Positions 5,424-33,014 of a DNA stretch of 42,326 nt are shown here, in pieces. The stretch lies in assembly GCA_001770355.1 (NCBI GenBank), contig MEQV01000279.1, positions 1 to 42,326 on the forward strand, given 5' to 3'. The notes below the pieces were generated by a model. It was not told the DNA's origin. It saw only the letters and a program-made list of their open reading frames with translations, and made no database searches. Source of the stretch: Betaproteobacteria bacterium RIFCSPLOWO2_02_FULL_62_17 (GTDB lineage Bacteria > Pseudomonadota > Gammaproteobacteria > Burkholderiales > SG8-39). Every line of letters starts with the position of its first letter. Position 1 is the stretch's first letter. The position numbers and the translations under genes were made by a program.

Positions 5424-5477
5424 TCATGGGGCGGATCAATTGGTTGCCGGAGGCCGGTGAATATCCGGAAGCGGCGA

Positions 5478-6070: not shown

Positions 6071-6164
6071 TGTAACTCTCCAAGCTCCGCAAGACGTGGG
6101 AAGAAGCGGCCCCATTCGTCAAGACACCCCGCCGGGATCCATCAGTGCAGTCGCTGCAAGAAAC

Positions 6165-6515: not shown

Positions 6516-6563
6516 ACGGGCGGGGGGGCGGGACAGTTGGCGGGGCGGTGGCCGAACCGGCGC

Positions 6564-6938: not shown

Positions 6939-7051
6939 GCTCCCCTCCCCAAAGGTCAGTAGGCGGCGCCGGTCAGTCAAATTCTACCGCGCGCCCATTT
7001 TCTCCGAAGCAGCCAATTCGGTTGTTGCTCTCGGCCGCGACAATCGCTAAT

Positions 7052-7429: not shown

Positions 7430-7561
7430 CAGTCGACGGCTCAATAATGTGATCGACAAGCTCGCGCAGAGCGGCCCGCGGACAGGGGAAAGGGTGGCAC
7501 AGACTGGTCCCCGATGCTCAAACTCGAGAGACGGTGCGGCGTCACGATCCGTAGATATTAG

Positions 7562-9376: not shown

Positions 9377-9413
9377 GTCCTTGCGGTGCCCAAGACAAAC
9401 GCACGACAAAGCC

Positions 9414-11606: not shown

Positions 11607-13243
11607 AGCTCGCCATCGGCACTGTCCAGTTCGGCCTCAACTATGGCATTGCAAATCGAAGCGGCCAAGTCAACCAACGTGAAGCACGATCGATCTTGGG
11701 CTATGCCAAGGCTCACGGCATCGACACTTTGGATACCGCCATCACCTACGGCGACTGCGAAACGCGGTTGGGCGAAATCGGGGTGACTGGCTGGCAAGTG
11801 ATATCGAAATTGCCCGCACTACCGGTTCACGTCCAAGATGTCGAAACATGGGTGCGCGCTCAGGTTCAGGCGTCGCTTGCGCGGTTGCGCATGTCGTGTT
11901 TGAGAGGATTTCTGCTGCATCGGCCAGAGCAACTTCTCGGAAAACATGGAGACGAGATTTATTGCGCGCTGTCCGCGCTTAAACGGCAGGGCCTGATCGA
12001 GAAGATCGGGGTTTCGATCTACAACCCTGGCGAACTTGACCCCCTCGTCCGACGCTTCAACCTGGATCTTGTGCAAGCGCCGTTCAATATTCTCGATCGC
12101 CGTCTGATTACGTCTGGCTGGATGGATCGATTGGCCAGAATGAATATCGAATTGCACGCCCGTTCAGTATTCCTTCAGGGGCTATTGCTCATGCCCAACA
12201 CGAGACGGCCGGACAAATTCAATCGCTGGCAACCGATCTGGCAGAGATGGCAACGGTGGCTTGCAGAGACCGGTTTGACTCCATTACAAGCCTGCCTGCG
12301 CGATGCGTTGCGGCAGACCGGCATTGCGCGAGTCGTTGTGGGCGTCGACAGCCTGGCGCAACTCGAGGAGATTCTGCGGGCGGCCGAAGGCCCTGCCCCG
12401 GACCTGCCGGAAGCACTTCACACCAACGAGATTGATCTCATCGATCCTGCGCGTTGGGAAAAGCATACAACGCAGACAAGGAATATCGTTGCCATCATCC
12501 AAGCCCGGATGAGCTCCTCACGCCTGCCTGGAAAGGTATTGATGCCGTTGGCAGGCAAGCCGGTGTTGGAACACGTCGTCAGCCGTATCCGAGCCTGCAA
12601 GACAGTAGGGAACGTTGTGATTGCGACCTCAACCGACCGCACCGACGACGCCATCCAGGCGTGGTGCGAAACGGAAGGGATCAGCCATTACCGTGGCAGT
12701 CTGGACGATGTGCTTGATCGTTACTACCAGGCAGCAATGATCCACAAGGCAGATGCCGTCGTACGCATTACTGCGGATTGTCCCGCCGTTGATCCGACAA
12801 TTGTGGATGACGTGGTCAAGGGTTTCTTGGCGGGGGGGTACGACTACTACGGACTTTCGGGCGAGTTCCCGGACGGTCTGGATTGCACAGTGTTCTCGTT
12901 TGCTGCGCTCGAGCGCGCATGGCACGAAGCCAAGCTGAAATCCGAGCGCGAGCATGTCGGCCCTTATGTGGAAAAGCATCCGGAACTGTTCAAGATCGGG
13001 GGCTACAAGAAATTTTCGGGCCTGTCGTGCCATCGATGGACGCTGGATGAGCCCCGCGATTACGAATTTCTCCAGGCTGTCTTCGCCAGGCTGTACCAAG
13101 AGGGGGCGCCGTTCCTGACCGCGGAAGTTCTTGCGCTGCTCGACAGGGAGCCAGAACTCATGGCGATCAACAGCAACATCGTCCGCAATGAAGGTTATTT
13201 GAAGTCCCTGGCGGAAGACAGGAAAGAAAATGTACAGCCTTGA
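11603..13243 (+). CDS. Fusion protein: aldo/keto reductase (N-terminal) + SpsF/NeuA-type cytidylyltransferase (C-terminal)
   Basis: aa 1-285 are AKR-like (MKLAIGTVQFGLNYGIAN..., GIDTLDTAITYG). aa about 293-546 read NIVAIIQARMSSSRLPGKVLMPLAGKPVLEHVV...YRGSLDDVLDRYYQAA...VVRITADCPAVDP, which are the SpsF-type CMP-sugar synthetase motifs. There is no stop between the two halves. Confidence 0.7.
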   Translation: MKLAIGTVQFGLNYGIANRSGQVNQREARSILGYAKAHGIDTLDTAITYGDCETRLGEIGVTGWQVISKLPALPVHVQDVETWVRAQVQASLARLRMSCLRGFLLHRPEQLLGKHGDEIYCALSALKRQGLIEKIGVSIYNPGELDPLVRRFNLDLVQAPFNILDRRLITSGWMDRLARMNIELHARSVFLQGLLLMPNTRRPDKFNRWQPIWQRWQRWLAETGLTPLQACLRDALRQTGIARVVVGVDSLAQLEEILRAAEGPAPDLPEALHTNEIDLIDPARWEKHTTQTRNIVAIIQARMSSSRLPGKVLMPLAGKPVLEHVVSRIRACKTVGNVVIATSTDRTDDAIQAWCETEGISHYRGSLDDVLDRYYQAAMIHKADAVVRITADCPAVDPTIVDDVVKGFLAGGYDYYGLSGEFPDGLDCTVFSFAALERAWHEAKLKSEREHVGPYVEKHPELFKIGGYKKFSGLSCHRWTLDEPRDYEFLQAVFARLYQEGAPFLTAEVLALLDREPELMAINSNIVRNEGYLKSLAEDRKENVQP

Positions 13244-14555
13244 AGAACTGAAACAGAGCAAGGGCGTAGCGCTTTACGGGCGCGCAAGATCCCTTATTCC
13301 CGGTGGTACGCAACTTCTCTCCAAGCGCCCCGAGATGTTTGCGCCGGGCGTCTGGCCCTCGTATTACTCCCGGGCCAAAGGTTGCCGGGTCTGGGACCTG
13401 GATGGGCGCGAGTTCATCGACATGTCCATCATGGCGGTCGGTGCCTGCATTCTCGGCTACGCCGATGACGAAGTGGATGACGCGGTCGTTCAGGCACTCC
13501 GCAATGGGGTCAACAGTTCGCTCAACTGTCCTGAAGAAGTCGCGCTGGCCGAGGCTCTCATCGAACTCCACCCCTGGTTCGACATGGTGCGTTACGCCCG
13601 GAGCGGCGGGGAGGCTATGGGGGTGGCCGTACGCATCGCCCGCGCCCACACCCGGCGCGATGTTGTGATGTTCAGTGGCTACCATGGCTGGAACGACTGG
13701 TACCTGGCAGCCAACCTTGCTGACAGTGCGGGCCTGGACGGTCAACTCATGCCCGGCCTTCTGCCGAACGGCGTTCCCAGGGGGTTGCTCGGCACTGCAA
13801 TTGCCTTTGACGCCAACAGCATTGATTCACTTCGCGACAAGATTCGGGGCAAGGAAAACAAAATTGCCGCGATCGTCATCGAACCCGCCCGAGGTGAGGA
13901 CGCTCCAGCGGGATATCTCAAAGCCCTGCAGGAATTGGCGACGGAGATTGGCGCCGTACTCGTTTTTGACGAAATCACCAGCGGGTTCCGCATGTGCGGC
14001 GGTGGCATCCACCGCAATTATGCGGTTCACCCCGACATGGCGGTCTTTGCCAAGTCCATGGCCAACGGTTACGCGATGTCCGTCGTGATGGGGACCGAGA
14101 AAGTGATGCAGTCCGCCCAGACCACCTTCATTTCCAGCACCAACTGGACAGACCGCATCGGTCCCGTCGCCGCTCTGGCAACCCTGAGGAAATACCAGCG
14201 CTTGGGGGTGGAAAAGCATTTGATCGCTACGGGCAATCAGGTCAAGCAAATCTGGCGAAGTGCGGCTGAGGCCCACGGCTTGAAAATCAATGTGACGGGA
14301 TTGCCGTCGCTCGCGGCATTTGCCTTCAAGAGCTCCGATGCGATGGCGTTGAACACGCGCTTCACGATTGAGCTGCTCAGACGCGGATTTCTGGGATTCC
14401 GTCAGTTCAAGCCATCATTGGCGCACCAGCCGGCGGACTTGAGTCAATATCAAACTGCGGTTGATGAGGTCTTTGCACTCATTGCCGCTGATCCCGCCGC
14501 CCGTATAGATACCCCTCTTGCGCACAGCGGCTTTCAGCGATTGACGAAAGAGTAA
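13230..14555 (+). CDS. Class III PLP aminotransferase (glutamate-1-semialdehyde aminomutase-like)
   Basis: 441 aa. ...LIPGGTQLLSKRP..., ...VLVFDEITSGFRM..., ...DMAVFAKSMANGYAMS (PLP lysine context). It overlaps the upstream gene by 14 nt. Confidence 0.75.
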   Translation: MYSLEELKQSKGVALYGRARSLIPGGTQLLSKRPEMFAPGVWPSYYSRAKGCRVWDLDGREFIDMSIMAVGACILGYADDEVDDAVVQALRNGVNSSLNCPEEVALAEALIELHPWFDMVRYARSGGEAMGVAVRIARAHTRRDVVMFSGYHGWNDWYLAANLADSAGLDGQLMPGLLPNGVPRGLLGTAIAFDANSIDSLRDKIRGKENKIAAIVIEPARGEDAPAGYLKALQELATEIGAVLVFDEITSGFRMCGGGIHRNYAVHPDMAVFAKSMANGYAMSVVMGTEKVMQSAQTTFISSTNWTDRIGPVAALATLRKYQRLGVEKHLIATGNQVKQIWRSAAEAHGLKINVTGLPSLAAFAFKSSDAMALNTRFTIELLRRGFLGFRQFKPSLAHQPADLSQYQTAVDEVFALIAADPAARIDTPLAHSGFQRLTKE

Positions 14556-14559
14556 GCGC

Positions 14560-15495
14560 ATGTCCGCTGGGCGACCGACACGAAAGAAATGGCGGGACCA
14601 TGAGGGCTCGCTGGCGGCGTTTGCCAATGGCTTTGACGTCATTGATTGCAAGCCTTGCGGATTCAAGCACATCATCCCCATCCCGACCGAAGAGGAGTTG
14701 GAGAAGGCTTATAAGGAAGATTACTACACGCGGGAAAAGCCGCTCTACATCGAACGCTATCGCGAGGATCTCGACTGGTGGAATATGGTTTACGCACGGC
14801 GCTACGAGATTCTGGAGCGGCATTTGCCTGCCGAGCGGCGGCGCATGTTGGATATCGGCTCAGGGCCAGGCTTCTTCTTGCTCAACGGCGCGAAGCGGGG
14901 TTGGCAGGTCACGGGTATAGAGCCGTCACTCCAAGCGGCCGAGCACGGCCGCGGGTTGGGGCTGGATGTCGAGAATGATTTTTTTTCAGAGAAAACGGCG
15001 TCCCGCTTGGGGTTTTACGATGCGATCAACATGGGAGAGGTGCTCGAACATATCCCAGACCCTGCGGCACTCTTGTCATTGACGTATCGTCAATTGAACG
15101 ATAGCGGCCTCGTTTGCATCGTTGTCCCGAACGACTTCAATCCCTTTCAGCTCGTGCTGCGCGATCACCTCGGATTCGAACCTTGGTGGGTTGCTCCTCC
15201 GCATCATATTAACTATTTCGATTTCGATTCACTTTCAAGGCTTGCGGAGCGGTGCGGATTCAAGGTGCTGCATAAAGAGGCCACCTTTCCAATCGATATG
15301 TTCCTACTCATGGGAGATCGATACATTGGAGACGATAAACTGGGGCGATCGTGTCATGAGAAGCGAATGAATTTTGAAAGAGCTTTGTGCAAGTCAGGCA
15401 GTGGTCGCTTACTTAGTGACTTGTATTCGGAGCTCTCCAAACACGGTATAGGGCGCGAAATCGTACTATTCGCGAGGAAAGCTAGAGAGAGCTAA
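14560..15495 (+). CDS. Class I SAM-dependent methyltransferase
   Basis: Motif I MLDIGSGPGFF and post-I/II blocks ...YDAINMGEVLEHIPDP...GLVCIVVPN. Confidence 0.7.
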   Translation: MSAGRPTRKKWRDHEGSLAAFANGFDVIDCKPCGFKHIIPIPTEEELEKAYKEDYYTREKPLYIERYREDLDWWNMVYARRYEILERHLPAERRRMLDIGSGPGFFLLNGAKRGWQVTGIEPSLQAAEHGRGLGLDVENDFFSEKTASRLGFYDAINMGEVLEHIPDPAALLSLTYRQLNDSGLVCIVVPNDFNPFQLVLRDHLGFEPWWVAPPHHINYFDFDSLSRLAERCGFKVLHKEATFPIDMFLLMGDRYIGDDKLGRSCHEKRMNFERALCKSGSGRLLSDLYSELSKHGIGREIVLFARKARES

Positions 15496-15637
15496 CTTAG
15501 CGTGGCGCGAGTTCCGTCAGCGCTTCCACTGGCCATTGAAGCTGGACTAAGTTTGTCAGCCTACGCAATGACGCTGTTGTTCTAAACCACAGCCTGTTCC
15601 GTTCCACGCCGCGAATAATAAACGGTGAGGTCGTCAT

Positions 15638-16834
15638 ATGAGCCAAATCGGGATCGCAATCCAGGTCGCTGCTCGCAATTGGAGCGGTGGTACTGACTTC
15701 TGCGTCAAAACGCTTGATGGTATTGCTATCTACAAGATAACGAGAGACCGAATCAAGGCGATCATCGACGACATGGGGCTAGATTTGCCCATATTCTACG
15801 TGGCTCCCGCCCGAAAAGAAGAACGCGATATCTTCTCGATGGACACCTCAATAACCACCGGCGCAGCACCAATATTCTTTGGAAGTGAATATGACGTACT
15901 TGACCGTCTGTTGGACTTCGGACGCTTAAATGGGCTTGACTACATATTCCGAATAAACGGCAGTTTCTGGTACCTGAATTCACCATTGTGCTCCAAGATA
16001 TTTAGGCACCAAGCTATTCATCATGCCGATATGATTAAACTTCCCGCGGATTTTCCGCACGGATTTGCGGGGGAATTGATCAGCGTAGAGGCACTTTCGC
16101 GACTGCGTGAGATATGTCGAGGACGGGTGATAACAAACCCTGTCGCGGAAATGGCAAACAACCCCATGTTCACAATATACGACGTAACGCCGTTAAATGG
16201 CGCGATTTCGTCGGCGGAAATTCACAATATTCGCAATAAGCGCCTTCAATATGAGCCGGAACGAGTGGAATATGATTTGGCCACAAATTATGAAGAGGGA
16301 AGTATCGATCACACCCGGTATTTGAAAGCATTATCTTATATTAATGCTGGTGATGTGGTGCTCGACATCGCATGCGGCGCAGGATTCGGTGCCGACATGA
16401 TTGCGCGAAAAGCGGCACGCGTCGTTGGCGCAGATTACAACGAGGGGGTTATAAGGCGTTGCCAGCTTCAATATCGTAGGGCCAATCTCAGTTACGAAGT
16501 GGCCGATGTTACACGATTGGACTGCGCCGATTCGAGCTTTGATGTAGTGGTGTCCATGGAGACAATTGAACACGTTGACGAACAATTGTTTGTCTCCAAT
16601 GTTACACGCGTGCTAAAGATGGGCGGCAAACTCATCCTGTCAACACCGCAAAATCGGTACGGCTTTTGTTTAACTCCGTGGCATATCAAAGAATATAGTG
16701 TGGATCAACTTAGAGACCTTCTGAACCCTAACTTTAAAGTGCACAAAGTTCACGGCATAACTTCGGCTTTAATAAGTGACAACTCGGAAGGTGGGGACAG
16801 GATGTTGGTAGTCGCCATAAGGCGATCTAGATGA
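15638..16834 (+). CDS. Fusion protein: degenerate SpsF-like cytidylyltransferase-fold domain + class I SAM methyltransferase
   Basis: The N-terminal half aligns by eye with the SpsF half of 11603..13243. IGIAIQVAARNWSGGTDFCVKTLDG pairs with IVAIIQARMSSSRLPGKVLMPLAG. FFGSEYDVLDRLL...IFRINGSFWYLNSP pairs with YRGSLDDVLDRYY...VVRITADCPAVDP. The RLPGK and DCP motifs are lost. The C-terminal half has VLDIACGAGFG...VVSMETIEHV. Confidence 0.55.
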   Translation: MSQIGIAIQVAARNWSGGTDFCVKTLDGIAIYKITRDRIKAIIDDMGLDLPIFYVAPARKEERDIFSMDTSITTGAAPIFFGSEYDVLDRLLDFGRLNGLDYIFRINGSFWYLNSPLCSKIFRHQAIHHADMIKLPADFPHGFAGELISVEALSRLREICRGRVITNPVAEMANNPMFTIYDVTPLNGAISSAEIHNIRNKRLQYEPERVEYDLATNYEEGSIDHTRYLKALSYINAGDVVLDIACGAGFGADMIARKAARVVGADYNEGVIRRCQLQYRRANLSYEVADVTRLDCADSSFDVVVSMETIEHVDEQLFVSNVTRVLKMGGKLILSTPQNRYGFCLTPWHIKEYSVDQLRDLLNPNFKVHKVHGITSALISDNSEGGDRMLVVAIRRSR

Positions 16835-17964
16835 GGCGCAATTTTGTCACTGAGCCGTTCTACAACACACGGGACCGCGTCGGGTCATGGGCTCCAACTA
16901 GAGTAATTTCGTATTCTGGAAGCAGAAATGCACTTGGACGGATTCTGCAAGAGGTTTCGCAAATAATCTTAGTAACCGATGAGGTCTTTCAGGAGGATGA
17001 GTTCGTATTAGCTCTAATGGCTAAGTTCAAAGCCAGAATCATGGCGAGTTTAAATATAGAACGTGAACCTCGCTTACTAGACGTGGAGAAAGCTACTATT
17101 GGTATAGCAAGCCCACACGATCTTGTTATCGCGATTGGTGGTGGGTCCGCAATAGACTATGCCAAAGTTCTCTCACTGAAATTGTCCAATATCGCGATTC
17201 CGCCCGATGAGAATACGAGAACCGGTATTCAGCCTATCATTGCCGTTCCAACAACTTGCGGCACCGGTTCGGAGACGTCACGACACGCTGTCATATACGA
17301 TCACCGCGGAAAGAAATTCGCAATTCGTCACTGGGACCTGTCTCCGGCGGTCGCGATCTTAGATACATATTTTTTGCAGACTGCGCCGACATACCTAATT
17401 GTGAAGACTGCTTTCGATGCTTTTGTGCACCACCTAGAAACCTTTTCACTTAAATGTGAGGCCAATCGCTTCACGCGATATATCGCTGTTTATTGGATGA
17501 ACACCATATTGCAGGCGGTTGAGCGCTTCATCACGCACGGGTACTCTGAAGGGTGCATTGCCAACTTGCAATTGGGTTCCGCCTATGGTGGTGTATCGCT
17601 TTCAAATAGTCGTACGGGGTTGATTCACACTCTTGGTGAGAGTATAGCCTCGCAGATTCCTGTGACCCATCCTGATTCGCTATTTCTTTTCTTTGAGCCG
17701 GTTTTCAGTACATATGGCGACTGGTTCGACGCTGAAATACGTGCGATGGGAGTAACGTCATTTACGTCACATGAAATTATCTGCAAATGGCAAGATAATT
17801 TTGCGCGCTGTGCCGCAAATGCACAAGCGGTGGATTGCTCGCTAGTGAATAGATATGAACTCGTTACAGCAGTTTGCAGTGACACAGTAATTTTCCGAGA
17901 GCACCCCGTTAGGCTAGATGGCGAGACTGTAACTCGTATAGTTGATAGTGCTTTGAAATACTAG
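16831..17964 (+). CDS. Iron-containing (group III) alcohol dehydrogenase family protein
   Basis: GGGSAIDYAK, PTTCGTGSETS, DAFVHHLE and GLIHTLG motifs. 4-nt overlap with the upstream gene. Confidence 0.7.
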   Translation: MRRNFVTEPFYNTRDRVGSWAPTRVISYSGSRNALGRILQEVSQIILVTDEVFQEDEFVLALMAKFKARIMASLNIEREPRLLDVEKATIGIASPHDLVIAIGGGSAIDYAKVLSLKLSNIAIPPDENTRTGIQPIIAVPTTCGTGSETSRHAVIYDHRGKKFAIRHWDLSPAVAILDTYFLQTAPTYLIVKTAFDAFVHHLETFSLKCEANRFTRYIAVYWMNTILQAVERFITHGYSEGCIANLQLGSAYGGVSLSNSRTGLIHTLGESIASQIPVTHPDSLFLFFEPVFSTYGDWFDAEIRAMGVTSFTSHEIICKWQDNFARCAANAQAVDCSLVNRYELVTAVCSDTVIFREHPVRLDGETVTRIVDSALKY

Positions 17965-17983
17965 AGACGGCAGGACTTCCAAA

Positions 17984-19111
17984 ATGAATAGCATTCTTCA
18001 CATTCCCACGCAGCTCGATTTTGGGATCGGATCTATCGCCAGATTTCGGTTACCCGCTGGACCCGTGCTCGTGCTCACTGGTAATTCACTAGACGATGAG
18101 ACGAGGGAATACGTAGTAAAGAGCTTGGCTACCGACAAGACTGACTTGATCCTGTTGAGAAAGCCGCGTGGAGAGCCATTTTCTGCGCAAATCGATTGCG
18201 TCTTCTCTGATCTTCCGCGTGAACTAGTTGCTGTTGTTGGTGTTGGTGGTGGGAGTGTCTTAGATTTTGCCAAGGCTGTGGCGATACTCGCTGGTTCTGG
18301 CGGCAAGATAATGGACTATGAGTTTGGAGCTCGCAAGATTGGAACTGTCCTTCCATTATATTTGGCACCTACCACCTGCGGTAGTGGTAGTGAGGTAACA
18401 CCATACTGTGTAATTAACAATAGTGAAACGGGACGAAAATCCACACTTAATCATCCAGCGCTTCGTCCTGTTCAGGCCGCAGTGGATCCTGAGTTTCTGC
18501 GCCATCTGCCAGGTCCAGTGCGCTTGTCCACTGGGCTTGATGCGTTTACTCATTGTCTAGAGGCCGTCCTTACGCGCGCCGAAACAAGGCTTATAAGACC
18601 GATAGCGGAAGCGGGGCTAGCTCTGGGATGGCAAAGGATTCCTCAGGCAACGCACCCCGAACAGAGCTCCGAGGCCTTAGTGGAAATGGCTCAATTATCG
18701 CTATATGGCGGAATTAGCATTGCGCACAGTCGTACCGGCTTAATCCATACGATGTCTGTTGCTTTTGCAGAGTTTTGCGATTTACCCCATGGCTTGCTTA
18801 ATGCGCGCCTTCTCCCATATGCATTGGCACACAACCTTTCTGGTTATGACGGATTGCTAAGAGCATTAGTTCAGCGCTTTAGTGGCAAGACAATAGACTC
18901 GGACGCAGATGCATTGAGGACGTTAACAGGCTGGCTTGCAAGCCTAATAGGAGCGGAGCCGCCCGCCCCAGGCCGGGAAATTCGCAAGCGGCTCAATGCG
19001 ATTGTACGGCGAATGCTCCAAGACAACGGGTTGCCGGGAGTGAGTCACGGAATAATCGACCATAAATCCTTGACATCCCTTATTGAGAGTGTTGCAGATG
19101 CGTCTAGATAA
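17984..19111 (+). CDS. Iron-containing (group III) alcohol dehydrogenase family protein (second, divergent paralogue)
   Basis: GVGGGSVLDFAKA, APTTCGSGSEVT, LDAFTHCLEA and GLIHTMS motifs. Confidence 0.75.
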   Translation: MNSILHIPTQLDFGIGSIARFRLPAGPVLVLTGNSLDDETREYVVKSLATDKTDLILLRKPRGEPFSAQIDCVFSDLPRELVAVVGVGGGSVLDFAKAVAILAGSGGKIMDYEFGARKIGTVLPLYLAPTTCGSGSEVTPYCVINNSETGRKSTLNHPALRPVQAAVDPEFLRHLPGPVRLSTGLDAFTHCLEAVLTRAETRLIRPIAEAGLALGWQRIPQATHPEQSSEALVEMAQLSLYGGISIAHSRTGLIHTMSVAFAEFCDLPHGLLNARLLPYALAHNLSGYDGLLRALVQRFSGKTIDSDADALRTLTGWLASLIGAEPPAPGREIRKRLNAIVRRMLQDNGLPGVSHGIIDHKSLTSLIESVADASR

Positions 19112-19610
19112 CCTGGGAAGGGAGCTTTTTGATCAACGGGCTAAGGCAGTGGAGTTTGCTGCTTTATTAGAACACCATTGTGATTGGATAACTTGTGTTC
19201 CTGACAGCATATTTAAGCGTGTACTGCCTGCACTTAAAGAGTGGCACTACGCGCCACGCGAAAATCATGCAGTTGCGATGGCTTTTGGCGTACGACTGGC
19301 GGGACGACGTCCTGCTGTCTTGATTCAGAACAGTGGGCTTGGCGTATGTCTGGATGCTTTGCTAGGAACCTTTATCCTCTATAAACAAGGATTGTTATTA
19401 GTGATTTCTCATCGCGGAGTTTTGAGTTGGGAAGAATCCCAGCATCATGATTGGGGAAGGATAACTACATCTTTGCTTTCATCGGTTGGTATTCCACAGA
19501 TTTCTTTTGACTCTGATGGTTTGACCGGACTTGTACGCGCGATCACGATGGCACAGGAGGACAACCAAGTTGTAGCGTTAGTCATTCAACGAGGCAACTT
19601 AGATGAATAG
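19098..19610 (+). CDS. ThDP-dependent decarboxylase, alpha (pyrimidine-binding) subunit, phosphonopyruvate/sulfopyruvate decarboxylase (ComD-like) family
   Basis: Taken from ATG 19098. CVPDSIFKRVL...RENHAVAMAFGVRLAGRRPAVLIQNSGLGVCLDALLGTF...LLVISHRG...EESQHH parallels the GVPDSLLK...NEGNAVA...MQNSGLGN...WRGEPG..DEPQH blocks of Ppd/ComD as I remember them. It overlaps the ADH stop by 14 nt. Confidence 0.7.
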   Translation: MRLDNLGRELFDQRAKAVEFAALLEHHCDWITCVPDSIFKRVLPALKEWHYAPRENHAVAMAFGVRLAGRRPAVLIQNSGLGVCLDALLGTFILYKQGLLLVISHRGVLSWEESQHHDWGRITTSLLSSVGIPQISFDSDGLTGLVRAITMAQEDNQVVALVIQRGNLDE

Positions 19611-20070
19611 ACGACCCACCGTGATCAAGAATATCCTTGACCAACATCCAGATGCATTTGTTGTCCTTAGTAATGGTCTAACTTCGCGTGAAGCGTCGCA
19701 TTTCTTTCGTCAGCAGCGCTGCCTCTATATGTTGCATGCAATGGGAGAATCGCTGGCAGTAGGTGTGGGATTGGCGAAAGCGTTGCCGCGACTTCAGGTC
19801 GTCGTAATCGAGGGCGATTACAATGCCCTGATGGGATTAGCGGCTTGGAGCTTGATGCCACTGTCGAATCTACGGTACTACGTCCTTGATAATCGCAGTT
19901 CCGAAACAACTGGCGGTCAGTCGGTGCCGCGCTTGCCATTCGTGCCAGCATGGTGCTCTGTCGTGCAGATGGCGTCTGGAAGATCAGATGCGCCTAATCC
20001 ACCGCCTCCAAGGGACATTTGGCACGAGTGTAGAGCTTGGTTGGTTTCCAACCGGTACTTGCAGGAGTAA
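19603..20070 (+). CDS. ThDP-dependent decarboxylase, beta (diphosphate-binding) subunit (ComE-like)
   Basis: NGLTSRE..., MGESLAVGVGLAKA, then a ThDP-binding motif variant GDYNALMGL...(27 residues)...VLDN followed by ETTGGQS. It overlaps the alpha subunit by 8 nt. At 155 aa it is short for the family. Confidence 0.65.
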   Translation: MNRRPTVIKNILDQHPDAFVVLSNGLTSREASHFFRQQRCLYMLHAMGESLAVGVGLAKALPRLQVVVIEGDYNALMGLAAWSLMPLSNLRYYVLDNRSSETTGGQSVPRLPFVPAWCSVVQMASGRSDAPNPPPPRDIWHECRAWLVSNRYLQE

Positions 20071-20078
20071 CTATAATT

Positions 20079-21146
20079 ATGATCCGGACAATTCTTCCGA
20101 CTGCAACAGGTGCCATAGAAATTGGCGATGCTCTACCAACTTATCTAATTGCAGAAATCGGTCTAAACCATACCGGTAATGAAGAGTTAGCGCGGACGAT
20201 GATCTATCAAGCAGCGCTTAGCGGGGCTAGCTTCGTCAAGTTCCAGAAACGTTCCCCCGTAGATCTTGCTACCGCTAATTTCCTTGATGCGCCATTCGCA
20301 AAATGTCCAGTATTAGGTCGTACCCAACGTGAGGTGCGCCATCGCTTGGAATTGTCACTGGAGGCATATCAGCGCCTAAGGTGTTATGCAGAAAGTTTGG
20401 GGCTAATCTTCTTTGCGTCGGCTTTTGACATACCGAGTCTCGACTTCCTTCTGCAGGCTGATGTGAAGATCGTAAAGATTGCTAGCCATAGTCTTACCAA
20501 TGGGCCGCTATTACGGAGACTAGCGCAATTAAGGCTACCGGTAATTGCCAGCGTTGGCGGCAGCACCAGTCACGAACAAGATATGGCGCTCGGCATACTA
20601 CGAGATAATCCCGTTGTACTGTTGCACTGTGTAAGTGCATACCCAACGCCTGATCATATGGTAGCGCTCGATACTATCGCGGCGTTAAGGGAAAGATATA
20701 AAATCCCGGTGGGCTTTTCTAGTCACGAGGTAGGAATAGATATCTCGGTCGCCGCATCAGTACTCGGAGCTTGCATGATTGAACGTCACTTTACGCTCAA
20801 TCGTGCGATGATTGGGTTGGATCAATCGATTAGCCTCGAACCAGCCGAATTCGCAGAAATGGCAATTAAAGTTCGGCGGCTACAAGCTGCGCGCGGCGTT
20901 TCCAAAGGTCTGCAAGATGGGGAAAAAGCGGCTAAGTACGCATATCATGTTGCGGTGTGTGCAAATCAACCAATTAGAGCGGGCACCGTCATAGCAGCGG
21001 AAATGCTGGTATGCAAACAACCATTGATTGATCCCATGCGATATTTTACCGGTCTTGAAGTTGAATCTGTCATAGGCTTGACCGCGAAGATCGATTTGGT
21101 GGGTGATACCGCAATTCCGCGAGATTCAGTTAGCGCATACAGATGA
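20079..21146 (+). CDS. NeuB-family nonulosonic acid synthase with C-terminal SAF domain (PseI/LegI/NeuB type)
   Basis: Taken from ATG 20079, with AGGAG just upstream. IAEIGLNHTGNEELARTMI...GASFVKFQKR... is the TIM-barrel part and the C-terminal ...VCANQPIRAGTVIAAEMLVCKQP is SAF-like. Which nonulosonate it makes cannot be told from sequence alone. Confidence 0.8.
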   Translation: MIRTILPTATGAIEIGDALPTYLIAEIGLNHTGNEELARTMIYQAALSGASFVKFQKRSPVDLATANFLDAPFAKCPVLGRTQREVRHRLELSLEAYQRLRCYAESLGLIFFASAFDIPSLDFLLQADVKIVKIASHSLTNGPLLRRLAQLRLPVIASVGGSTSHEQDMALGILRDNPVVLLHCVSAYPTPDHMVALDTIAALRERYKIPVGFSSHEVGIDISVAASVLGACMIERHFTLNRAMIGLDQSISLEPAEFAEMAIKVRRLQAARGVSKGLQDGEKAAKYAYHVAVCANQPIRAGTVIAAEMLVCKQPLIDPMRYFTGLEVESVIGLTAKIDLVGDTAIPRDSVSAYR

Positions 21147-21153
21147 AATCTCG

Positions 21154-22416
21154 ATGAAAGAATTGGCAATTCTTTTTGTTGGTGGAGGTATTGAAACGCT
21201 TCCTGGTATTCGACTTGCAAAGTCGTTTGGGCTTCATGTTCTAGTTTCCGATCGCAGACCAGATGCACCATGTATGGTGGAGGCTGACGCCGCGCTGATC
21301 GCTAATACCTACGATGTTGACGAAAGCATTGCTGTTGCGAAGCGTTATCACCGTGAAGTCCGACCAATTAACGGGGTAATGTGCATGGCAACGGATGTTC
21401 CATTGACTGTGGCGAGCATTGCGGCGGAACTTGGTCTTCCTGGAATCTCTGTCGATTCGGCCCGATTGGTCAGCGACAAGCTTCTGATGAAGGACCACTT
21501 AGTGGCAGCCGGTCTTCCGGTGCCTTGGTATGCGGCCGTTCGGAGCCTAGGGGAGCTGAGACAGATTGTCTCTGACCGCGGGTATCCGTTGGTGCTCAAA
21601 CCTGTCGATAGCCGTGGTGCGCGTGGAGTGCTGCGTCTCTTGGAAGGCATAGATTTAGATTGGGCTTTCTTCACCTCTAAGTCTTTCTCGCCCACTGAGC
21701 GAGTGATGGTGGAGGAGTTCTTGGGCGGACCGCAGATCAGCACGGAGTCCATAGCAGTTCAGGGCGAGGTATTTACCTTGGGGTTTTCCGACCGTAACTA
21801 CGAGTTTCTAGATCGCTACGCCCCCAATATTATCGAGAACGGTGGGGATCTGCCAAGCGTCTTACTGGCCGCAGACCAGAAAAGCATTTGTGACACATTG
21901 CATGATGCTGCAAGGAGCTTTGCAATTGTAAATGGTGTCGTTAAGGGGGATATGGTTCTCTCCGATGGAAAGCCCTTCATTATCGAGGTTGCGTTGCGCC
22001 CATCGGGTGGATATTTCTGTTCACATCAAATTCCCTTGAACACTGGTGTCGATTTGGTTGCTAAGGCGATTCGTCTAGCCCTCGGGCAGCCCATTGATCC
22101 AATAGAATTACGTCCTAGGTGTAATCGTGCGGTTTGCCAACGCTATTTCTTTCCAGAGCCAGGCTGGGTCGATGCGATTTATGTTCCTAATTGGATATCG
22201 CAAGATTCAGATATCGCTCTTTTCGAGTTAAGGGTGAGTCCGGGGGATGTGGTTCCAAAGCCAATAAGCCATCCCGCAAGAGCCGGGGTCGTAATTGCGA
22301 CTGGCAAAGACAGAGCGGATGCAAAGGAACGAGCGGAGCGCGCCATTCGTGAAACCGTGATTACTACTAGTTCAGATTCGATATCGAGTTCCTCAATCTC
22401 TTTGACCGCGAACTAG
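21154..22416 (+). CDS. ATP-grasp domain ligase
   Basis: Taken from ATG 21154. A pre-ATP-grasp Rossmann-like N-terminus (ILFVGGGIETLPGIRLAKSFGL), then ...DKLLMKDHLVAAGLPVPWY...YPLVLKPVDSRGARGV...VMVEEFLGGPQISTESI..., the typical ATP-grasp core. Confidence 0.7.
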   Translation: MKELAILFVGGGIETLPGIRLAKSFGLHVLVSDRRPDAPCMVEADAALIANTYDVDESIAVAKRYHREVRPINGVMCMATDVPLTVASIAAELGLPGISVDSARLVSDKLLMKDHLVAAGLPVPWYAAVRSLGELRQIVSDRGYPLVLKPVDSRGARGVLRLLEGIDLDWAFFTSKSFSPTERVMVEEFLGGPQISTESIAVQGEVFTLGFSDRNYEFLDRYAPNIIENGGDLPSVLLAADQKSICDTLHDAARSFAIVNGVVKGDMVLSDGKPFIIEVALRPSGGYFCSHQIPLNTGVDLVAKAIRLALGQPIDPIELRPRCNRAVCQRYFFPEPGWVDAIYVPNWISQDSDIALFELRVSPGDVVPKPISHPARAGVVIATGKDRADAKERAERAIRETVITTSSDSISSSSISLTAN

Positions 22417-22432
22417 AGAAGCAGCTCCACGA

Positions 22433-23284
22433 ATGGTCAAGTTTATCGCCGAGGTATCTAGTAATCACCATCGCGAGTTTCTTCGGGCACTCGCATTTGT
22501 CGATGCGGCCGCTCGTTCTGGGTGCGATGCCGTGAAGTTCCAGCTCTTCAAGATCGACCAATTGTTTTCCCCAGAAATCCTTGCGCGATCAGAGAAGCAC
22601 CGTAAACGCAAGGAATGGGAATTACCTTTGGAGTTTGTACCCAAACTGGCGCAACGGTGCCGCGAGTTGGGAATTGAATTCTCCTGCACACCATTCTATT
22701 TAAACGCAGTTTCGGAACTTGAACTCCACGTAGCATTTTTTAAGATCGCCTCCTATGAATTGCTCTGGGACGGGCTGCTGGCTGCGTGCGCGAGAACCGG
22801 GAAGCCAGTAATTCTCTCGACCGGTATGGCAACTATTGACGAGATTAAACACGCTGTTGAAGTGCTTCATATGCACGGATGCAGCGCTCCGACACTTCTT
22901 CACACTGTTTCGGCCTATCCTGCGCCTTGTGCTGAAGCTAACCTTGCTGCAATTGAGACTATTCGTCAGGTGACAGGTTGCGAGGCAGGTTGGTCCGATC
23001 ACACGGTGGAGCCCGCCGTGATCCACCGGGCGATTCATCGATGGGGCGCGAAGGTAATTGAATTTCATCTCGATCTGGATGGAAAAGGTGAAGAGTTTGA
23101 CGCGGGACACTGTTGGCTGCCAGATCAGATCGCCGCCGTAATTCAGGATGTGAAGAAGGGTTTTGAAGCAGACGGTAATGGCATCAAGGAACCCGTTTCC
23201 TCTGAGCTGTCTGATCGAATGTGGCGCGCGGACCCATCCGACGGGTTGCGGCCGCTGAAGGAGATTCGCGAGCAGTGGAATTGA
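22433..23284 (+). CDS. NeuB-like TIM-barrel protein lacking the SAF domain
   Basis: MVKFIAEVSSNHHREFLRALAFVDAAARSGCDAVKFQLFK...FKIASYEL...PVILSTGMATIDEI...LLHTVSAYPAP...GWSDHT. The NeuB-family barrel blocks are present, the protein is only 283 aa, and IAEVSSNHH stands in place of IAEIGxNHxG. Confidence 0.65.
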   Translation: MVKFIAEVSSNHHREFLRALAFVDAAARSGCDAVKFQLFKIDQLFSPEILARSEKHRKRKEWELPLEFVPKLAQRCRELGIEFSCTPFYLNAVSELELHVAFFKIASYELLWDGLLAACARTGKPVILSTGMATIDEIKHAVEVLHMHGCSAPTLLHTVSAYPAPCAEANLAAIETIRQVTGCEAGWSDHTVEPAVIHRAIHRWGAKVIEFHLDLDGKGEEFDAGHCWLPDQIAAVIQDVKKGFEADGNGIKEPVSSELSDRMWRADPSDGLRPLKEIREQWN

Positions 23285-23309
23285 TCGAATTGGGGTATAG
23301 CGATCTTGC

Positions 23310-24296
23310 ATGAATGCCCTGATTGTCTGCCATGCGGGCGCGGGGTTGGGTCTTGGGCATTTGACGCGGTCCCTTGTCGTAGCTCGTGCCTTACGTCAAG
23401 ACCTTGGCGCCCATGCACACCTTCTGATTCAGGGAGATCCGGTTCAGCGCGCCGATCTGGGTGAGTTTGAGCATCATTTTCTGGGAGTTGCGGAAAATCT
23501 GCTCTATGCAATCCGGCAGCAGGTCCAGCACGTCGATGCCCAAGTCGTGATTCTTGATTTGCATCCTCGCCTGGTGCCAGCGGATATCGGCGGGCTCTTG
23601 GAGGATTTGAGGCACGGTAAGTGCAAAGTCATCAGCGTAGATGGCCTCGTGAATCATCGCAGCAAATTGGATTTGGTCTTTATCCCGTCGTTTTGTTTTT
23701 CCCCACCGGAAGGCTTGATCGGGGCGGCGCCGATTCTGTCTGGATGGGACTGCTTTCTGCTGAATGTGAAGCGACCGCCGATGGAATGGCGACCCGGTGG
23801 GCGAGTTCTCGCCTTGACCGGGGGCAGCGATGCAACTGGCTTAGGCAAGACATTACCAACGCTACTGGACGAGGCGCTTCCCAGCGACACCGAGCTGCAC
23901 TGGGTTACGGGGCCTTTTGCACAAGGGCCGGTTTGGCCTGTTTTCCCTCGGCTGCGGATATCCAATCATCAATCCCCCTCTGATCTGAATGACCTGATGG
24001 CAGACGCCAACTATGCGGTCACAATTTATGGCGTAAGCTTTTTCGAATTGCTTCATTACGGCGTGCCGACTGTCGTGTTCTCGCCATACGATGGTAAAGA
24101 CGATGCAGAGCTGGCCATAATTGCGGCGCTGCGTGTTGCACTCGTGGCGACGGGTGAAACGGACGCCGTTGGCAAACTGAACAAATTGATGGCAGATCAT
24201 GAGTTGGCTGCCTCCCTGTCACGGCGCGCGAGACAGAGAATGTCGGTTCTGGGTAGGCGGAAATTCACGCAGGCGGTGGCGGAATTGTTACGCTAG
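23310..24296 (+). CDS. PseG/MurG-like GT-B fold protein (candidate UDP-sugar hydrolase or glycosyltransferase)
   Basis: The N-terminus MNALIVCHAGAGLGLGHLTRSLVVARAL resembles the RADASxxIGxGHxMRCLxLA start of PseG/SpsG. The C-terminal half has a GT28-like ...LTGGSDATGL...ADANYAVTIYGVSFFELLHYGVPTVV. The assignment is moderate only. Confidence 0.5.
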   Translation: MNALIVCHAGAGLGLGHLTRSLVVARALRQDLGAHAHLLIQGDPVQRADLGEFEHHFLGVAENLLYAIRQQVQHVDAQVVILDLHPRLVPADIGGLLEDLRHGKCKVISVDGLVNHRSKLDLVFIPSFCFSPPEGLIGAAPILSGWDCFLLNVKRPPMEWRPGGRVLALTGGSDATGLGKTLPTLLDEALPSDTELHWVTGPFAQGPVWPVFPRLRISNHQSPSDLNDLMADANYAVTIYGVSFFELLHYGVPTVVFSPYDGKDDAELAIIAALRVALVATGETDAVGKLNKLMADHELAASLSRRARQRMSVLGRRKFTQAVAELLR

Positions 24297-24298
24297 TC

Positions 24299-26272
24299 AT
24301 GGCTCAAGGTTATCTCCTCTTTCACCTTAATCTCGCCTTCTCGTCGATCCCGGCTGAGGCACGCCCAGAGGTGATCCGTAAGTGCTATTGGCCGCTGCTT
24401 CGTTTGGCAGAGGACACCGGAATTCCAATTGGTATTGAACTGACAGGCTGGACGCTGCGCCAGATCGCCACGCTGGATCATTCCTGGGTAGAGCGCTTCC
24501 GCCAGATGCTTGCTGGCCGGCAGTGCGAACTGATCGGAAGCGGCTGGTCCCAGATCATTGGTCCGCTGGTGCCGTACGACGTGAATCGCCGGAACCAGAA
24601 ACTGGGGCTGGAGACCTATCGGGAGGTGCTGGGGGTCACACCCAAGGTCGCGCTGGTGAATGAAATGGCCTTTTCAACCGGAATGGTGGACGTGTACGTC
24701 GAATCCGGTTACGAGGGCATCGTCATGGACCGGGACAACGTGCGCCTAGCGCTGGGTCTGGATCATGCGCCAATTTCGGCAACCCCGACACATGCGATGG
24801 GGTGCGGAGATTTTCCGCTGCCCGTTCTTTGGTCGGACTCAATACTCTTTCAGCGGTTACAGCGGGTCGTGCACGGGGATATTCCGGTCTCCGAATATAT
24901 GGCGTACGTCGGGCGACGCGCAGATCAGGACAATGCTCCCCTGCCCATCTATTGCAATGACGCAGAGATATTCGACTATCGGCCAGGGCGATTTGTGGCC
25001 GAGTCGCGACTGCACCCTGAGGGGGAATGGCAACGCCTTAAGCGCGTATGTCACGGGCTGCAGGAGTACCTTGCGCTGACATGGCTGAGTCCCGGCGAGG
25101 CGCTGGAGCTACAAGCGGCTACGCCAAAACCGAATGGGAGACGATTGACGTCAGTGTGCCAGCCGATTCCCGTCAAGAAACAGGCTAAGTACAACATTGC
25201 GCGCTGGGCAGTGACGGGCAGAGATGATCTCTGGCTGAATACGTCTTGTCACCAGATTCATCAGGCATTTCGTGAAAGCGGCACCGAGCAAGACGACAGT
25301 TGGCGGGAACTCTGCGAATTATGGGCCAGCGATCTGCGTACCCACATCACCGACGCTCGATGGAATGATGCAGTCGTGCGCGTTTCCGCATTGCGGTGTC
25401 AATTGGGCCTAGAGCGAATCCAGAGTAGCGGCACCGACACTGTGGAATCCAATCGACTCCCTAGTGGCATCGATTTCCCGAAAGGCGTGCAGATTACCCA
25501 GAACGAGGAAGGCATTCTGTGGACCATCAAGACGCCTTACATTCACCTTGTCTTGAACGCGCGTCGCGGCCTGACAATAAGATCGCTGGCGTTCAAGTCC
25601 CATGACTTCGCGCCAGTTGTGGGAACGTTGCCGCAAGGCTACTTCAGTTCCATTGAGCTGGGTGCAGACTTCTACTCTGGCGGCGTGATCATCGAGATGC
25701 CCGGCGAGCGCGTTCGCGTGACCGATCTCGAATGGGTGTTACCAAACATCCGGCAGCGAGGCACCGAGATATTGATCAGTGCAATGATTCCACTAGTAGA
25801 AGGTAACTTGGAGAAAACAATCACGGTCGGTGTTGATACCGAGCGGGTCACGTTGACGTACGACTTTCAGCCGTCCAAGCGCCCGCAGGGAATCGTTCGC
25901 GTCGGCATCATCACACTCCTTCCCGAGTCGCTTTCGTTACCCCTTGCCGTGCGCTGCGCAAACGGCGGGCAGAAAACCGAATTCTTCCAACTTGACGATG
26001 TCGTTAATCATGGCGGCGCCGCCTCGACATTGGTCTCCAGCACCGCCGCTTTCGGCGCCACGGACGGACGTCTTGTGATCGAGGATGCCCGAAGCCGTTG
26101 CCTTGTACTGACCTGGAATCCCGCCGACTGCGCTGCGATACCCATGCTGCAACATCAATGCTCGCGAGATCGCTATTTGGCCCGGCTTTCGTTCTCTCTG
26201 TGTGAGTTGGATGACACATCGCGAACGGGAGGCAGGTTAATGCGGTTTTCGGTTGCGTTGAGCACGGCGTGA
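24299..26272 (+). CDS. Glycoside hydrolase family 57-like protein
   Basis: LLFHLNLAFSSI... at the N-terminus, ELIGSGWSQII, VNEMAFS (candidate nucleophile Glu) and CNDAEIFDYRPG (candidate acid/base Asp, compare DGEKFGxWPG) resemble the conserved GH57 regions from memory. 657 aa. Confidence 0.4.
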   Translation: MAQGYLLFHLNLAFSSIPAEARPEVIRKCYWPLLRLAEDTGIPIGIELTGWTLRQIATLDHSWVERFRQMLAGRQCELIGSGWSQIIGPLVPYDVNRRNQKLGLETYREVLGVTPKVALVNEMAFSTGMVDVYVESGYEGIVMDRDNVRLALGLDHAPISATPTHAMGCGDFPLPVLWSDSILFQRLQRVVHGDIPVSEYMAYVGRRADQDNAPLPIYCNDAEIFDYRPGRFVAESRLHPEGEWQRLKRVCHGLQEYLALTWLSPGEALELQAATPKPNGRRLTSVCQPIPVKKQAKYNIARWAVTGRDDLWLNTSCHQIHQAFRESGTEQDDSWRELCELWASDLRTHITDARWNDAVVRVSALRCQLGLERIQSSGTDTVESNRLPSGIDFPKGVQITQNEEGILWTIKTPYIHLVLNARRGLTIRSLAFKSHDFAPVVGTLPQGYFSSIELGADFYSGGVIIEMPGERVRVTDLEWVLPNIRQRGTEILISAMIPLVEGNLEKTITVGVDTERVTLTYDFQPSKRPQGIVRVGIITLLPESLSLPLAVRCANGGQKTEFFQLDDVVNHGGAASTLVSSTAAFGATDGRLVIEDARSRCLVLTWNPADCAAIPMLQHQCSRDRYLARLSFSLCELDDTSRTGGRLMRFSVALSTA

Positions 26273-26299
26273 TCGCAGTCATTTACTCCCGCGTCCCAA

Positions 26300-28093: not shown

Positions 28094-28184
28094 CAGACAA
28101 ACGCCTATGCAGTCCGGCATTCTTGGTGCTTGGAATCCGCGCACTCAGCCTGCACGCGCAGCCTTCCGGGTCCTGCCGTAACTC

Positions 28185-29105: not shown

Positions 29106-29142
29106 AAAGCCTTTGCCAGGCAGGGCATACGGAGCACCGTAG

Positions 29143-30042: not shown

Positions 30043-30445
30043 TCGGTGCCAATCGGACTGCGTATTGTCCTCACTTAGGACGTTTTGCCCTTGCGACAAT
30101 GCGAATTGCTGCGGCATTCGCTTCTGTTTGCAGTTGCGTGGTCCCGGTGTTGCTTGATTGCGGGCCATTGGCGAATTGGGGCTCAGGCGAGGAGATGCTA
30201 CAAATGAACCCTTGGGGACCTTTTGACGAGTGCAGCCGCCCCTGACCACGGGAAAAGGTCTCGCATGACGCTGCGCGGTTCCATATATGGGGGCCAGATG
30301 GCTCAGACCCGTCCGATATTAGAGAGTCGCGCTAAACAGACTTGCCACCCTGCTCCCGGGCCGGGCACGCGAACATCAAACGCAATCCTGCTTGCCAAGA
30401 ATTCGGTACACCCTCAATGAATACTCCCATTGCGAAGCAGTGGTG

Positions 30446-32999: not shown

Positions 33000-33014
33000 G
33001 CGCGTTGGCAGTCG

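Follow-up and report, generated by a model that had tools for sequence, protein, structure and literature searches.

The enzyme pair described here has its closest known relatives among decarboxylases that depend on thiamine diphosphate (ThDP), and the nearest of these belongs to the synthesis of the peptide antibiotic rhizocticin, a pathway that is finished by ATP-grasp ligases. The two-subunit decarboxylase RhiE/RhiF of B. subtilis (PDB 9IZ3/9IZ4), with a PYR and a PP domain on separate chains, passes phosphonoacetaldehyde to the C-C bond-forming aldolase RhiG, which gives the 4-hydroxy-2-oxo acid 2-keto-4-hydroxy-5-phosphonopentanoate (PMC8942020). Through RhiEF, split phosphonopyruvate decarboxylases (Ppds) are known from bacteria (PMC12141560; PMC8942020), and ppd normally sits in neighbourhoods of ppm (PMC6697681), the gene of phosphoenolpyruvate (PEP) mutase (PepM). 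ComD/ComE of coenzyme M synthesis in methanogens belongs to the same split alpha/beta ThDP family. Here we analyse such a pair in Betaproteobacteria bacterium RIFCSPLOWO2_02_FULL_62_17 (assembly GCA_001770355.1, contig MEQV01000279.1, positions 1 to 42,326; this whole stretch of 42,326 nucleotides is called the window). The alpha and beta subunits are a known enzyme family in a previously undescribed conserved module with a paralog of NeuB, and no description of a linkage of this decarboxylase with flagellin, nonulosonic acid or NeuB was found in open-access full text. The evidence points less to phosphonate or sulfonate synthesis than to an undescribed route for a side chain of pseudaminic-acid-type sugars. 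The four genes of the module core are:

17984-19111, forward strand: Fe-ADH2, iron-type alcohol dehydrogenase, first core gene (Pfam Fe-ADH 95.6 bits, ADH_Fe_C 60.9 bits)
19098-19610, forward strand: alpha subunit, PYR domain of the ThDP decarboxylase (ATG 19098 to TAG 19610, 170 aa)
19603-20070, forward strand: beta subunit, PP domain of the ThDP decarboxylase (ATG 19603, 155 aa)
20079-21146, forward strand: NeuB1, non-canonical NeuB-family paralog of 355 aa, last core gene (Pfam NeuB 222 bits)

A first-pass annotation of this DNA had recognised two overlapping open reading frames (ORFs) as the N- and C-terminal halves of a Ppd/sulfopyruvate decarboxylase, and this is confirmed by the ORFs, the profiles and the matches to RhiE/RhiF. 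The two ORFs share 8 nt of overlap (ATGAATAG), with a GAGG positioned 8 nt 5' of the beta ATG. The start of alpha was fixed at ATG 19098, not at TTG 19083, since its homologs all open with MR.D..GR, and the 5' end of the gene overlaps the Fe-ADH2 stop by 14 nt. Because of these overlaps, Fe-ADH2, alpha and beta look translationally coupled. Four independent metagenome assemblies contain this DNA with 100% identity, so the alpha/beta split is no assembly artefact. A protein search gave 55 clusters of ~170-aa alpha homologs, and among 31 aligned ones the cofactor-activating Glu55, QNSG, R106 and H116 are invariant. Beta retains the Mg-binding D...N, and its ETTGGQ aligns with HESTGGQ of RhiF. 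Between the window and a second locus with the same genes (L008) beta is 76% identical, on par with the neighbour genes. Both genes are real and under constraint.

Against NCBIfam, alpha matched TIGR03297 (Ppd) with 78.6 bits and TIGR03845 (ComD) with 69.6 bits, and beta matched TIGR03297 with 56.9 bits and TIGR03846 (ComE) with 52.8 bits. All of these fall far short of the curated equivalog cut-offs, which are 312.5, 147.95 and 221.5 bits for TIGR03297, TIGR03845 and TIGR03846, respectively. Pfam TPP_enzyme_N remained sub-threshold on alpha (16.4 vs 26.8 bits) and TPP_enzyme_C was narrowly above threshold on beta (24.9 vs 21.9 bits). The best PDB match in a profile search was the split RhiE/RhiF of B. 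subtilis, with E 1e-28 for alpha against 9IZ3_A (RhiE, ~33% identity) and E 3.5e-12 for beta against RhiF (9IZ3_B). The pair has the hallmarks of the Ppd family, namely the PYR and PP domains, the activating Glu (Glu55) and GDx...N (GD[GYFA]-x26-N in beta), as well as the separate alpha and beta subunits of the ComDE type. Automatic annotation of homologs uses the ComDE name, whereas the window pair reaches under half of the ComD and ComE cut-offs and is bacterial, without a coenzyme M context.

We then compared the motifs in an alignment of 18 beta subunits of the window's own subfamily and 25 control beta subunits. The window beta carries GDY(x26)N, LHAMGE and a C-terminal PNPPxP. The subfamily shows LH[AG]MGE where Ppds show GSMG, has a subfamily-specific [TA]PNPPxP motif at the C-terminus and is ~30-45 residues shorter than Ppds at that end; compared with RhiF, too, the window beta is shorter and differs in LHxMGE and PNPPxP. 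In the alpha subunits, RGELxWEExQH stands where Ppds show WRGxxGxDAxEH. The first-pass annotation had pointed to GDY...DN as a variant ThDP-binding motif. It is really in the sequence, but the third residue is tyrosine only in the window and L012, phenylalanine in L008 and L010, alanine in L006 and glycine in the other 13 of the 18 betas, and 'DN' is the standard across the whole Ppd family, RhiF and PepM-linked Ppds included. GDY was thus rejected as a defining variant of the family; it is a lineage quirk.

For the comparison of loci, one genome per GTDB species was scanned, and two groups emerged. Loci with at least 42% identity to the window alpha form the cassette group, and 66 loci with 31-44% identity (L024-L089) served as the control group. 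The scans yielded 18 cassette loci, which together with the window, L090 and L091 make 21 distinct ones. The group includes an uncultured 'delta proteobacterium' (78%), a metagenome-assembled genome of Saccharibacteria, Rhodothermales, Desulfobulbales, seven Acidobacteriota, Maridesulfovibrio and Kordiimonas lipolytica. Neighbourhoods were read from tblastn of the window proteins against all fetched loci and from Pfam-annotated contexts.

Of the 21 distinct cassette loci, every one long enough to show its neighbours has alpha and beta followed by NeuB1. The two subunits are never fused, and the same 8-nt overlap is common to many loci. In 19 of the 21, the gene immediately upstream of alpha is an Fe-ADH2 ortholog, the exceptions being L015, with a cytochrome c7-like gene in that place, and L023 of Kordiimonas lipolytica (6366-10354), where a short-chain dehydrogenase/reductase replaces Fe-ADH and a full-length ALS-like ThDP enzyme is encoded upstream. 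The alpha ORF of L023 aligns from residue 54 only and may be truncated or frameshifted. The window and 12 of the 20 other loci have an ATP-grasp and a GH57-like gene along with the core, the GH57-like gene being present wherever ATP-grasp is, save in L011. A methyltransferase gene precedes Fe-ADH in L006, L008, L009, L021 and L091. Flagellin and Maf (MptE-like) genes adjoin the cassette in L001, L008 and L090 (Desulfuromonas acetexigens), which are flagellin glycosylation islands. Most cassette loci are pseudaminic-acid polysaccharide loci or such islands. In the Acidobacteriota locus L019 the four core genes stand alone, and a scan of 10 ORFs in the flanks showed no glycan gene; therefore, the module needs only common metabolites.

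Some loci showed further features. The Acidobacteriota core (L019 and L020) lies amid mobile elements: two IS1595 transposase genes flank it in L019 (3821-4744 and 14681-15604), and a repeated pair of 518-aa and 300-aa genes, a putative insertion sequence, lies between beta and NeuB1 in L020 (11150-13612 and 16431-18893). Upstream of the cassette in L091 (Maridesulfovibrio hydrothermalis, 3383-5983) we found a TagF-like Glyphos_transf gene and an extra NTP_transf_3 gene, which hints at a CDP-activated alcohol phosphate in this species. The L011 contig, binned as Candidatus Saccharibacteria, has a complete cassette with an alpha 64% identical to that of the window, as well as further NeuB genes. 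A cassette is unexpected in this reduced-genome lineage and could be due to a binning error or gene transfer.

The first-pass annotation had proposed a phylogeny as a check of the family, and it set the pair in a clade of its own, apart from Ppds and RhiE. In a neighbour-joining tree of a subsample of 43 alpha sequences the cassette alphas were monophyletic in 100/100 bootstraps. Identity between alphas is 39-99% inside this clade and 24-37% against PepM-linked Ppds, RhiE and 9U8Q. Judged from the sequences, the pair is a distinct, always-split subfamily of the Ppd/ComDE/RhiEF family.

The control group, mostly Nitrospira, consists of genuine phosphonate loci. There, a 2-aminoethylphosphonate (AEP) transaminase gene (TIGR03301, 352 bits) comes after alpha and beta, and a PEP mutase-nucleotidyltransferase fusion (Pfam PEP_mutase 195.6 bits) often comes before them. 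Their split Ppds resemble the window pair in having adjacent alpha and beta of similar size, but score 128.8 + 172.2 bits (~301) on TIGR03297 against 135 for the window pair, which is under half, and fall in a separate clade. No AEP transaminase or PntC-type gene accompanies the cassette pair, in contrast to the controls. Alpha and beta are in one ORF in just 3 of ~62 PepM-linked Ppd control loci. Given this, RhiEF and a remark in PMC8942020, split Ppds also occur outside the coenzyme M synthesis of archaea, and the earlier view of the split form as the archaeal coenzyme M arrangement was too narrow.

PepM was found by tblastn within 10 kb of the pair in none of the 21 cassette loci and in 21 of the 66 controls (Fisher p=0.0023); the query itself had been verified by its 195.6 bits on Pfam PEP_mutase. 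It gave no match in the window at E<=10 and merely chance-level fragments, in two loci, over the ~10 kb searched in the cassette group. Pfam PEP_mutase, ComA, ComB and ComC matched no plausible window ORF, so that the first reading of the window as free of PEP mutase and ComA/B/C-like genes is borne out. Likewise, no ComA, ComB, ComC, Ldh_2, cysteate or sulfolactate gene was present in any Pfam-annotated cassette context.

Next, we turned to the last gene of the core. NeuB1 scores under the equivalog cut-offs for NeuB and PseI (TIGR03569, TIGR03586). It shares the NeuB barrel with NeuB, PseI and LegI, its alignment to canonical NeuB runs through the SAF region, and the residues that bind PEP and metal are conserved: relative to N. 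meningitidis NeuB and PseI (taken from PDB alignments), E25, K53, Q55, K129, S132, Y186, S213, H215, E234, H236 and D247 are kept in 18/18 full-length NeuB1 orthologs. However, G133H, E134S and R314Q are also found in 18/18. In the canonical set E25, E134, E234 and R314, NeuB1 thus keeps E25 and E234, with E134 being Ser and R314 being Gln. R314, the single catalytic residue conserved in the SAF domain, was reported to be essential in bacterial NeuB, and three glutamates, E134 among them, have been proposed as catalytic; the replacements therefore cost NeuB1 two residues with a role in catalysis or hexosamine binding in canonical enzymes (PMC8208679). By these residues, NeuB1 is no ordinary nonulosonic acid synthase.

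The window also encodes a second NeuB, together with other genes of a glycan operon:

9414-10436, forward strand: PseB (NCBIfam 519.7 bits, cut-off 407.75)
10446-11606, forward strand: PseC (NCBIfam 574.2 bits, cut-off 423.5)
11603-13243, forward strand: aldo-keto reductase/CMP-ulosonic-acid cytidylyltransferase fusion (Pfam Aldo_ket_red, CTP_transf_3; NCBIfam KidO-like, KdsB/PseF-like)
13230-14555, forward strand: class-III (GSA/GntE-like) aminotransferase (Pfam Aminotran_3 134.9; NCBIfam PRK06209 224 and GntE 216 bits, sub-cut-off)
14560-15495 and 15638-16834, forward strand: two SAM-dependent methyltransferases (Pfam Methyltransf_23, Methyltransf_11, Methyltransf_25)
16831-17964, forward strand: Fe-ADH1, accessory second paralog, 34% identical to Fe-ADH2 (Pfam Fe-ADH 104.8 bits)
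21154-22416, forward strand: ATP-grasp ligase of the L-amino-acid-ligase type (Pfam LAL_C2 55 bits, ATP-grasp_3; best PDB 3VOT, an L-amino acid ligase)
22433-23284, forward strand: NeuB2, short NeuB (Pfam NeuB 212.8 bits; active-site residues)
23310-24296, forward strand: weak PseG-like gene (PseG TIGR03590 48 bits vs cut-off 153.55, N-terminal half only)
24299-26272, forward strand: GH57-like protein of 657 aa (Pfam Glyco_hydro_57 44 bits, N-terminal part only)

PseB and PseC, the first two enzymes of pseudaminic acid (Pse) synthesis, pass their equivalog thresholds. NeuB2 travels with them and retains E134 and an Arg aligned with R314. It is likely a true Pse synthase that makes the nine-carbon sugar, and we infer from the residue pattern that the aldehyde which NeuB1 condenses with PEP is not that of NeuB2. 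Short NeuB2 orthologs of 283-310 aa, with most of the SAF domain gone, also occur in L006, L009, L012, L016 and L023; a conserved 'G..LRP' closes the tail of this type and lines up with the essential R314 of canonical NeuB.

With NeuB2, the PseG-like gene and the reductase-cytidylyltransferase fusion, the set for a pseudaminic-acid-type pathway is complete. The window is marked as a polysaccharide locus by transferases of the LIC12162 family and of GT2, by Wzz and by an initiating sugar transferase. Fe-ADH1 was found only in the window, L008 and L010. The GH57-like protein gave no NCBIfam match and no significant PDB match in sequence searches. We observed no GNAT family match, hence no PseH, in any window ORF scanned. 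None is listed in the seven Pfam-listed contexts either, of which the window, L006, L009 and L091 carry PseB and PseC, and ATP-grasp is present in all seven. The window therefore shares PseB, PseC, a PseI-like NeuB2 and the cytidylyltransferase with the Pse pathway, but is without PseH, has a weak PseG-like gene and adds ATP-grasp, the GH57-like gene and the four-gene core. These differences imply a non-acetyl N-acyl group.

Taken as a whole, we tentatively read the pair as an active, obligate heteromeric (alpha2beta2-type) ThDP 2-oxoacid decarboxylase that does not serve PEP-mutase-derived phosphonopyruvate and whose aldehyde product would be extended with PEP to an acid that is then ligated to the amine of a Pse precursor. 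We give this reading a little less than an even chance. The decarboxylase would be the middle step of the module Fe-ADH2 - alpha - beta - NeuB1, the linkage of which is observed. Alpha/beta would convert a small C3-type 2-oxoacid into a C2-type aldehyde. A C3 oxoacid is favoured because the closest relatives act on X-CH2-CO-COO- substrates; our guess would be hydroxypyruvate or 3-phosphohydroxypyruvate, with oxaloacetate or pyruvate as possible alternatives. Fe-ADH2 may yield the oxoacid from the matching 2-hydroxyacid, in which case the gene order would equal the reaction order. Its own family scores name no substrate: no NCBIfam equivalog was reached, ErcA, 4-hydroxybutyrate dehydrogenase, PsrA and SarD were the best at ~100-127 bits, and an assignment from such scores was rejected since PsrA, SarD, 4-hydroxybutyrate dehydrogenase and FucO all fall in this range. 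NeuB1, with its altered aldehyde pocket, would then join the aldehyde and PEP to a short 4-hydroxy-2-oxo (3-deoxy-2-ulosonic) acid. In the glycan loci the reductase, the class-III aminotransferase and the methyltransferases may tailor this acid, and the ATP-grasp ligase would attach it to the product of PseB/PseC at the 4-amino group, replacing the acetylation by PseH. The predicted outcome is a pseudaminic acid with an unusual N7-acyl chain, in keeping with the observed absence of PseH and presence of ATP-grasp. In its widest form, this would be a horizontally mobile pathway from hydroxyacid to oxoacid, aldehyde and PEP-extended 3-deoxy-2-ulosonic acid for Pse N-acyl (or otherwise linked) decorations on flagellins and polysaccharides, with NeuB1 as the first NeuB-family member to use a small non-sugar aldehyde. 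That whole chain we consider possible but rather unlikely.

Two precedents support the logic of the proposed module by analogy. The first is RhiEF-RhiG, where the aldehyde is likewise handed to a C-C bond-forming enzyme and the proposed equivalent here would be NeuB1. The systems differ in that RhiG is an HMGL-type aldolase whereas the C3-adding enzyme of the window is a PEP-dependent NeuB homolog, in that the window has no nearby ppm, and in the context, an antibiotic there and glycan decoration here. The second is the flagellin glycan of Treponema denticola, a pseudaminic-type nonulosonic acid with a 2-methoxy-4,5,6-trihydroxyhexanoyl group (PMC13439194). Methylated 3-deoxy-aldonic acids, to which this group belongs, are thus found as acyl groups on such sugars, and they are the class of product predicted for the module.

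Several points weigh against the proposed route. T. denticola is not among the best 80 alpha-bearing genomes, and its glycan is a chemical analogy only. In the Acidobacteriota loci, and in part in L015 and L023, at least one gene out of ATP-grasp, GH57-like and Fe-ADH is missing; therefore, ligation to Pse is not the sole use of the module. The cassette genomes could carry genes for PepM, or for enzymes of sulfolactate or cysteate, at other places. The change from GDG to GDY in the window beta might lower its affinity for ThDP. Finally, we infer the order of the three core reactions, and an aldehyde reductase beside NeuB1 would compete for the aldehyde unless Fe-ADH2 precedes the decarboxylase or acts on the C2 keto group.

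The same genes can be arranged in another order. NeuB1 would act first on PEP and an aldehyde, alpha/beta would decarboxylate the resulting 3-deoxy-2-ulosonic acid to a 2-deoxy aldehyde, and this would be reduced by Fe-ADH2 or aminated by the aminotransferase. The net effect would be an Ehrlich-type two-carbon homologation leading to a deoxy-polyol, 2-deoxy sugar or amino-alcohol substituent. Such an order gives an unbroken chain of substrates and products (2-oxoacid, aldehyde, reduction) and needs no outside oxoacid; the shortened C-terminus of beta could open the pocket, and the Glyphos_transf and NTP_transf_3 genes of M. hydrothermalis are what a CDP-activated alcohol phosphate would lead one to expect. 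On the other hand, Ppd, ComDE and RhiEF, the closest characterized relatives, all act on C3 substrates, so a Ppd-type pocket would have to take a larger acid, and the co-conserved ATP-grasp would be left without a carboxylate made by the pathway. We also know of no natural ThDP decarboxylase of ulosonic acids. We regard this order as doubtful, with a small chance of being right.

It is more improbable still that the pair is a genuine Ppd whose substrate comes from a PEP mutase encoded at an unlinked site, with Fe-ADH giving 2-hydroxyethylphosphonate, or NeuB1 giving 2-keto-4-hydroxy-5-phosphonopentanoate, for a glycan phosphonate. TIGR03297 is indeed the best family match and RhiEF the best structure, and besides transamination two branches after Ppd are known, one through an Fe-ADH (PhpC) and one through an aldol step (RhiG) (PMC8942020). 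The linkage speaks against it, with PepM within 10 kb at 0/21 cassette loci vs 21/66 controls and ppd usually in ppm neighbourhoods (PMC6697681), and so do the scores at under half of those of true split Ppds, the separate clade and the missing AEP transaminase or PntC-type gene.

Very unlikely, in our view, is a bacterial ComDE, a sulfopyruvate decarboxylase whose sulfoacetaldehyde would become isethionate, taurine or a NeuB1-extended product and end as a sulfonated glycan substituent, with Fe-ADH2 possibly supplying sulfopyruvate from sulfolactate. It would fit the split ComD/ComE architecture, the annotation of homologs by JGI, TIGR03845/TIGR03846 matches nearly as good as those to Ppd, and the 104-bit match of Fe-ADH2 to the sulfoacetaldehyde reductase SarD. 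The ComD and ComE scores, however, lie far under the cut-offs (69.6 vs 147.95 and 52.8 vs 221.5 bits), the annotated contexts hold no ComA, ComB, ComC, cysteate or sulfolactate genes, and the SarD score is no better than that of a dozen other Fe-ADH families. The first-pass annotation had further seen sulfotransferase gene remnants at 5.1-6.5 kb. We rejected these, since the region 5.1-6.6 kb gave no Pfam match at E<=1 and has no PKxGTT 5'-PSB motif; a direct repeat lies there instead. Both the phosphonate and the sulfonate explanation are disfavoured by linkage, scores and phylogeny.

The idea of a decayed, inactive single-chain Ppd, cut in two by a frameshift and put out of action when GDG became GDY, has next to no chance, and a frameshifted single-chain Ppd was rejected. 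Scores below threshold in Pfam and NCBIfam would fit, as would the non-canonical GDY, but the split is conserved in ~20 loci across several phyla, many with the 8-nt overlap, and the catalytic residues do not vary. Relatives show GDG, GDA or GDF in an otherwise same sequence, and the four assemblies agree.

This leaves the 2-oxoacid decarboxylase of the proposed side-chain route as our preferred reading. Its core idea, recruitment to a different 2-oxoacid, had been one of two options in the first-pass annotation, and is now better supported by the separate clade, the low Ppd and ComDE scores, the 0/21 PepM linkage and the linkage with NeuB1 and Fe-ADH. The arguments from the sulfotransferases, the archaeal split and GDY have fallen away.

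The surroundings of the operon were also recorded. GC content is 62-69% in the flanks and 47-57% over the glycan operon (14000-34000), with a minimum of 47-50% at 16-22 kb, the stretch that holds the core; this drop suggests that the glycan locus was acquired horizontally. Directly upstream of the operon lie, in divergent orientation, an H-NS-type gene (C-terminal Histone_HNS; 6564-6980, reverse strand) and a MarR/winged-helix regulator gene (7022-7429, forward strand), the candidate silencer and regulator of the island. Two ABC exporter genes (fused membrane and ATPase) and a gene for an RTX-repeat protein are located at 2117-3817 (reverse strand), 3951-5042 (forward strand) and 7562-9376 (forward strand) and may form a type I secretion substrate and exporter beside the glycan locus. 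At 36188-38110 (forward strand) a 640-aa ORF matches RmlC dTDP-4-dehydrorhamnose 3,5-epimerase in its C-terminal 170 residues and has no Pfam match in the N-terminal 460, and may be over-extended or a fusion. The direct repeat mentioned above has ~240-nt copies at 5145-5387 and 6159-6494 (81-91% identity, ~1.0-1.1 kb apart, 65% GC). The long ORFs over it are Arg-rich and without a Pfam match, and the 5.1-6.5 kb region is probably non-coding.

Pipelines label the pair sulfopyruvate or phosphonopyruvate decarboxylase and NeuB1 sialic acid synthase. If the function deduced from linkage is true, all three names mislead, and counts of phosphonate or coenzyme-M-like capacity based on Ppd/ComDE matches without ppm are inflated. 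The prediction is directly testable, since the cassette is present in cultured Desulfuromonas acetexigens, Maridesulfovibrio hydrothermalis and Kordiimonas. Strains that bear it include D. acetexigens GCA_007051125.1, M. hydrothermalis GCA_000425245.1 and Kordiimonas sp. SCSIO 12603. If true, it would explain non-acetyl acyl chains on pseudaminic and legionaminic acids, which affect flagellar assembly as well as phage and immune recognition, and it would extend both the NeuB and the Ppd families to new substrates.

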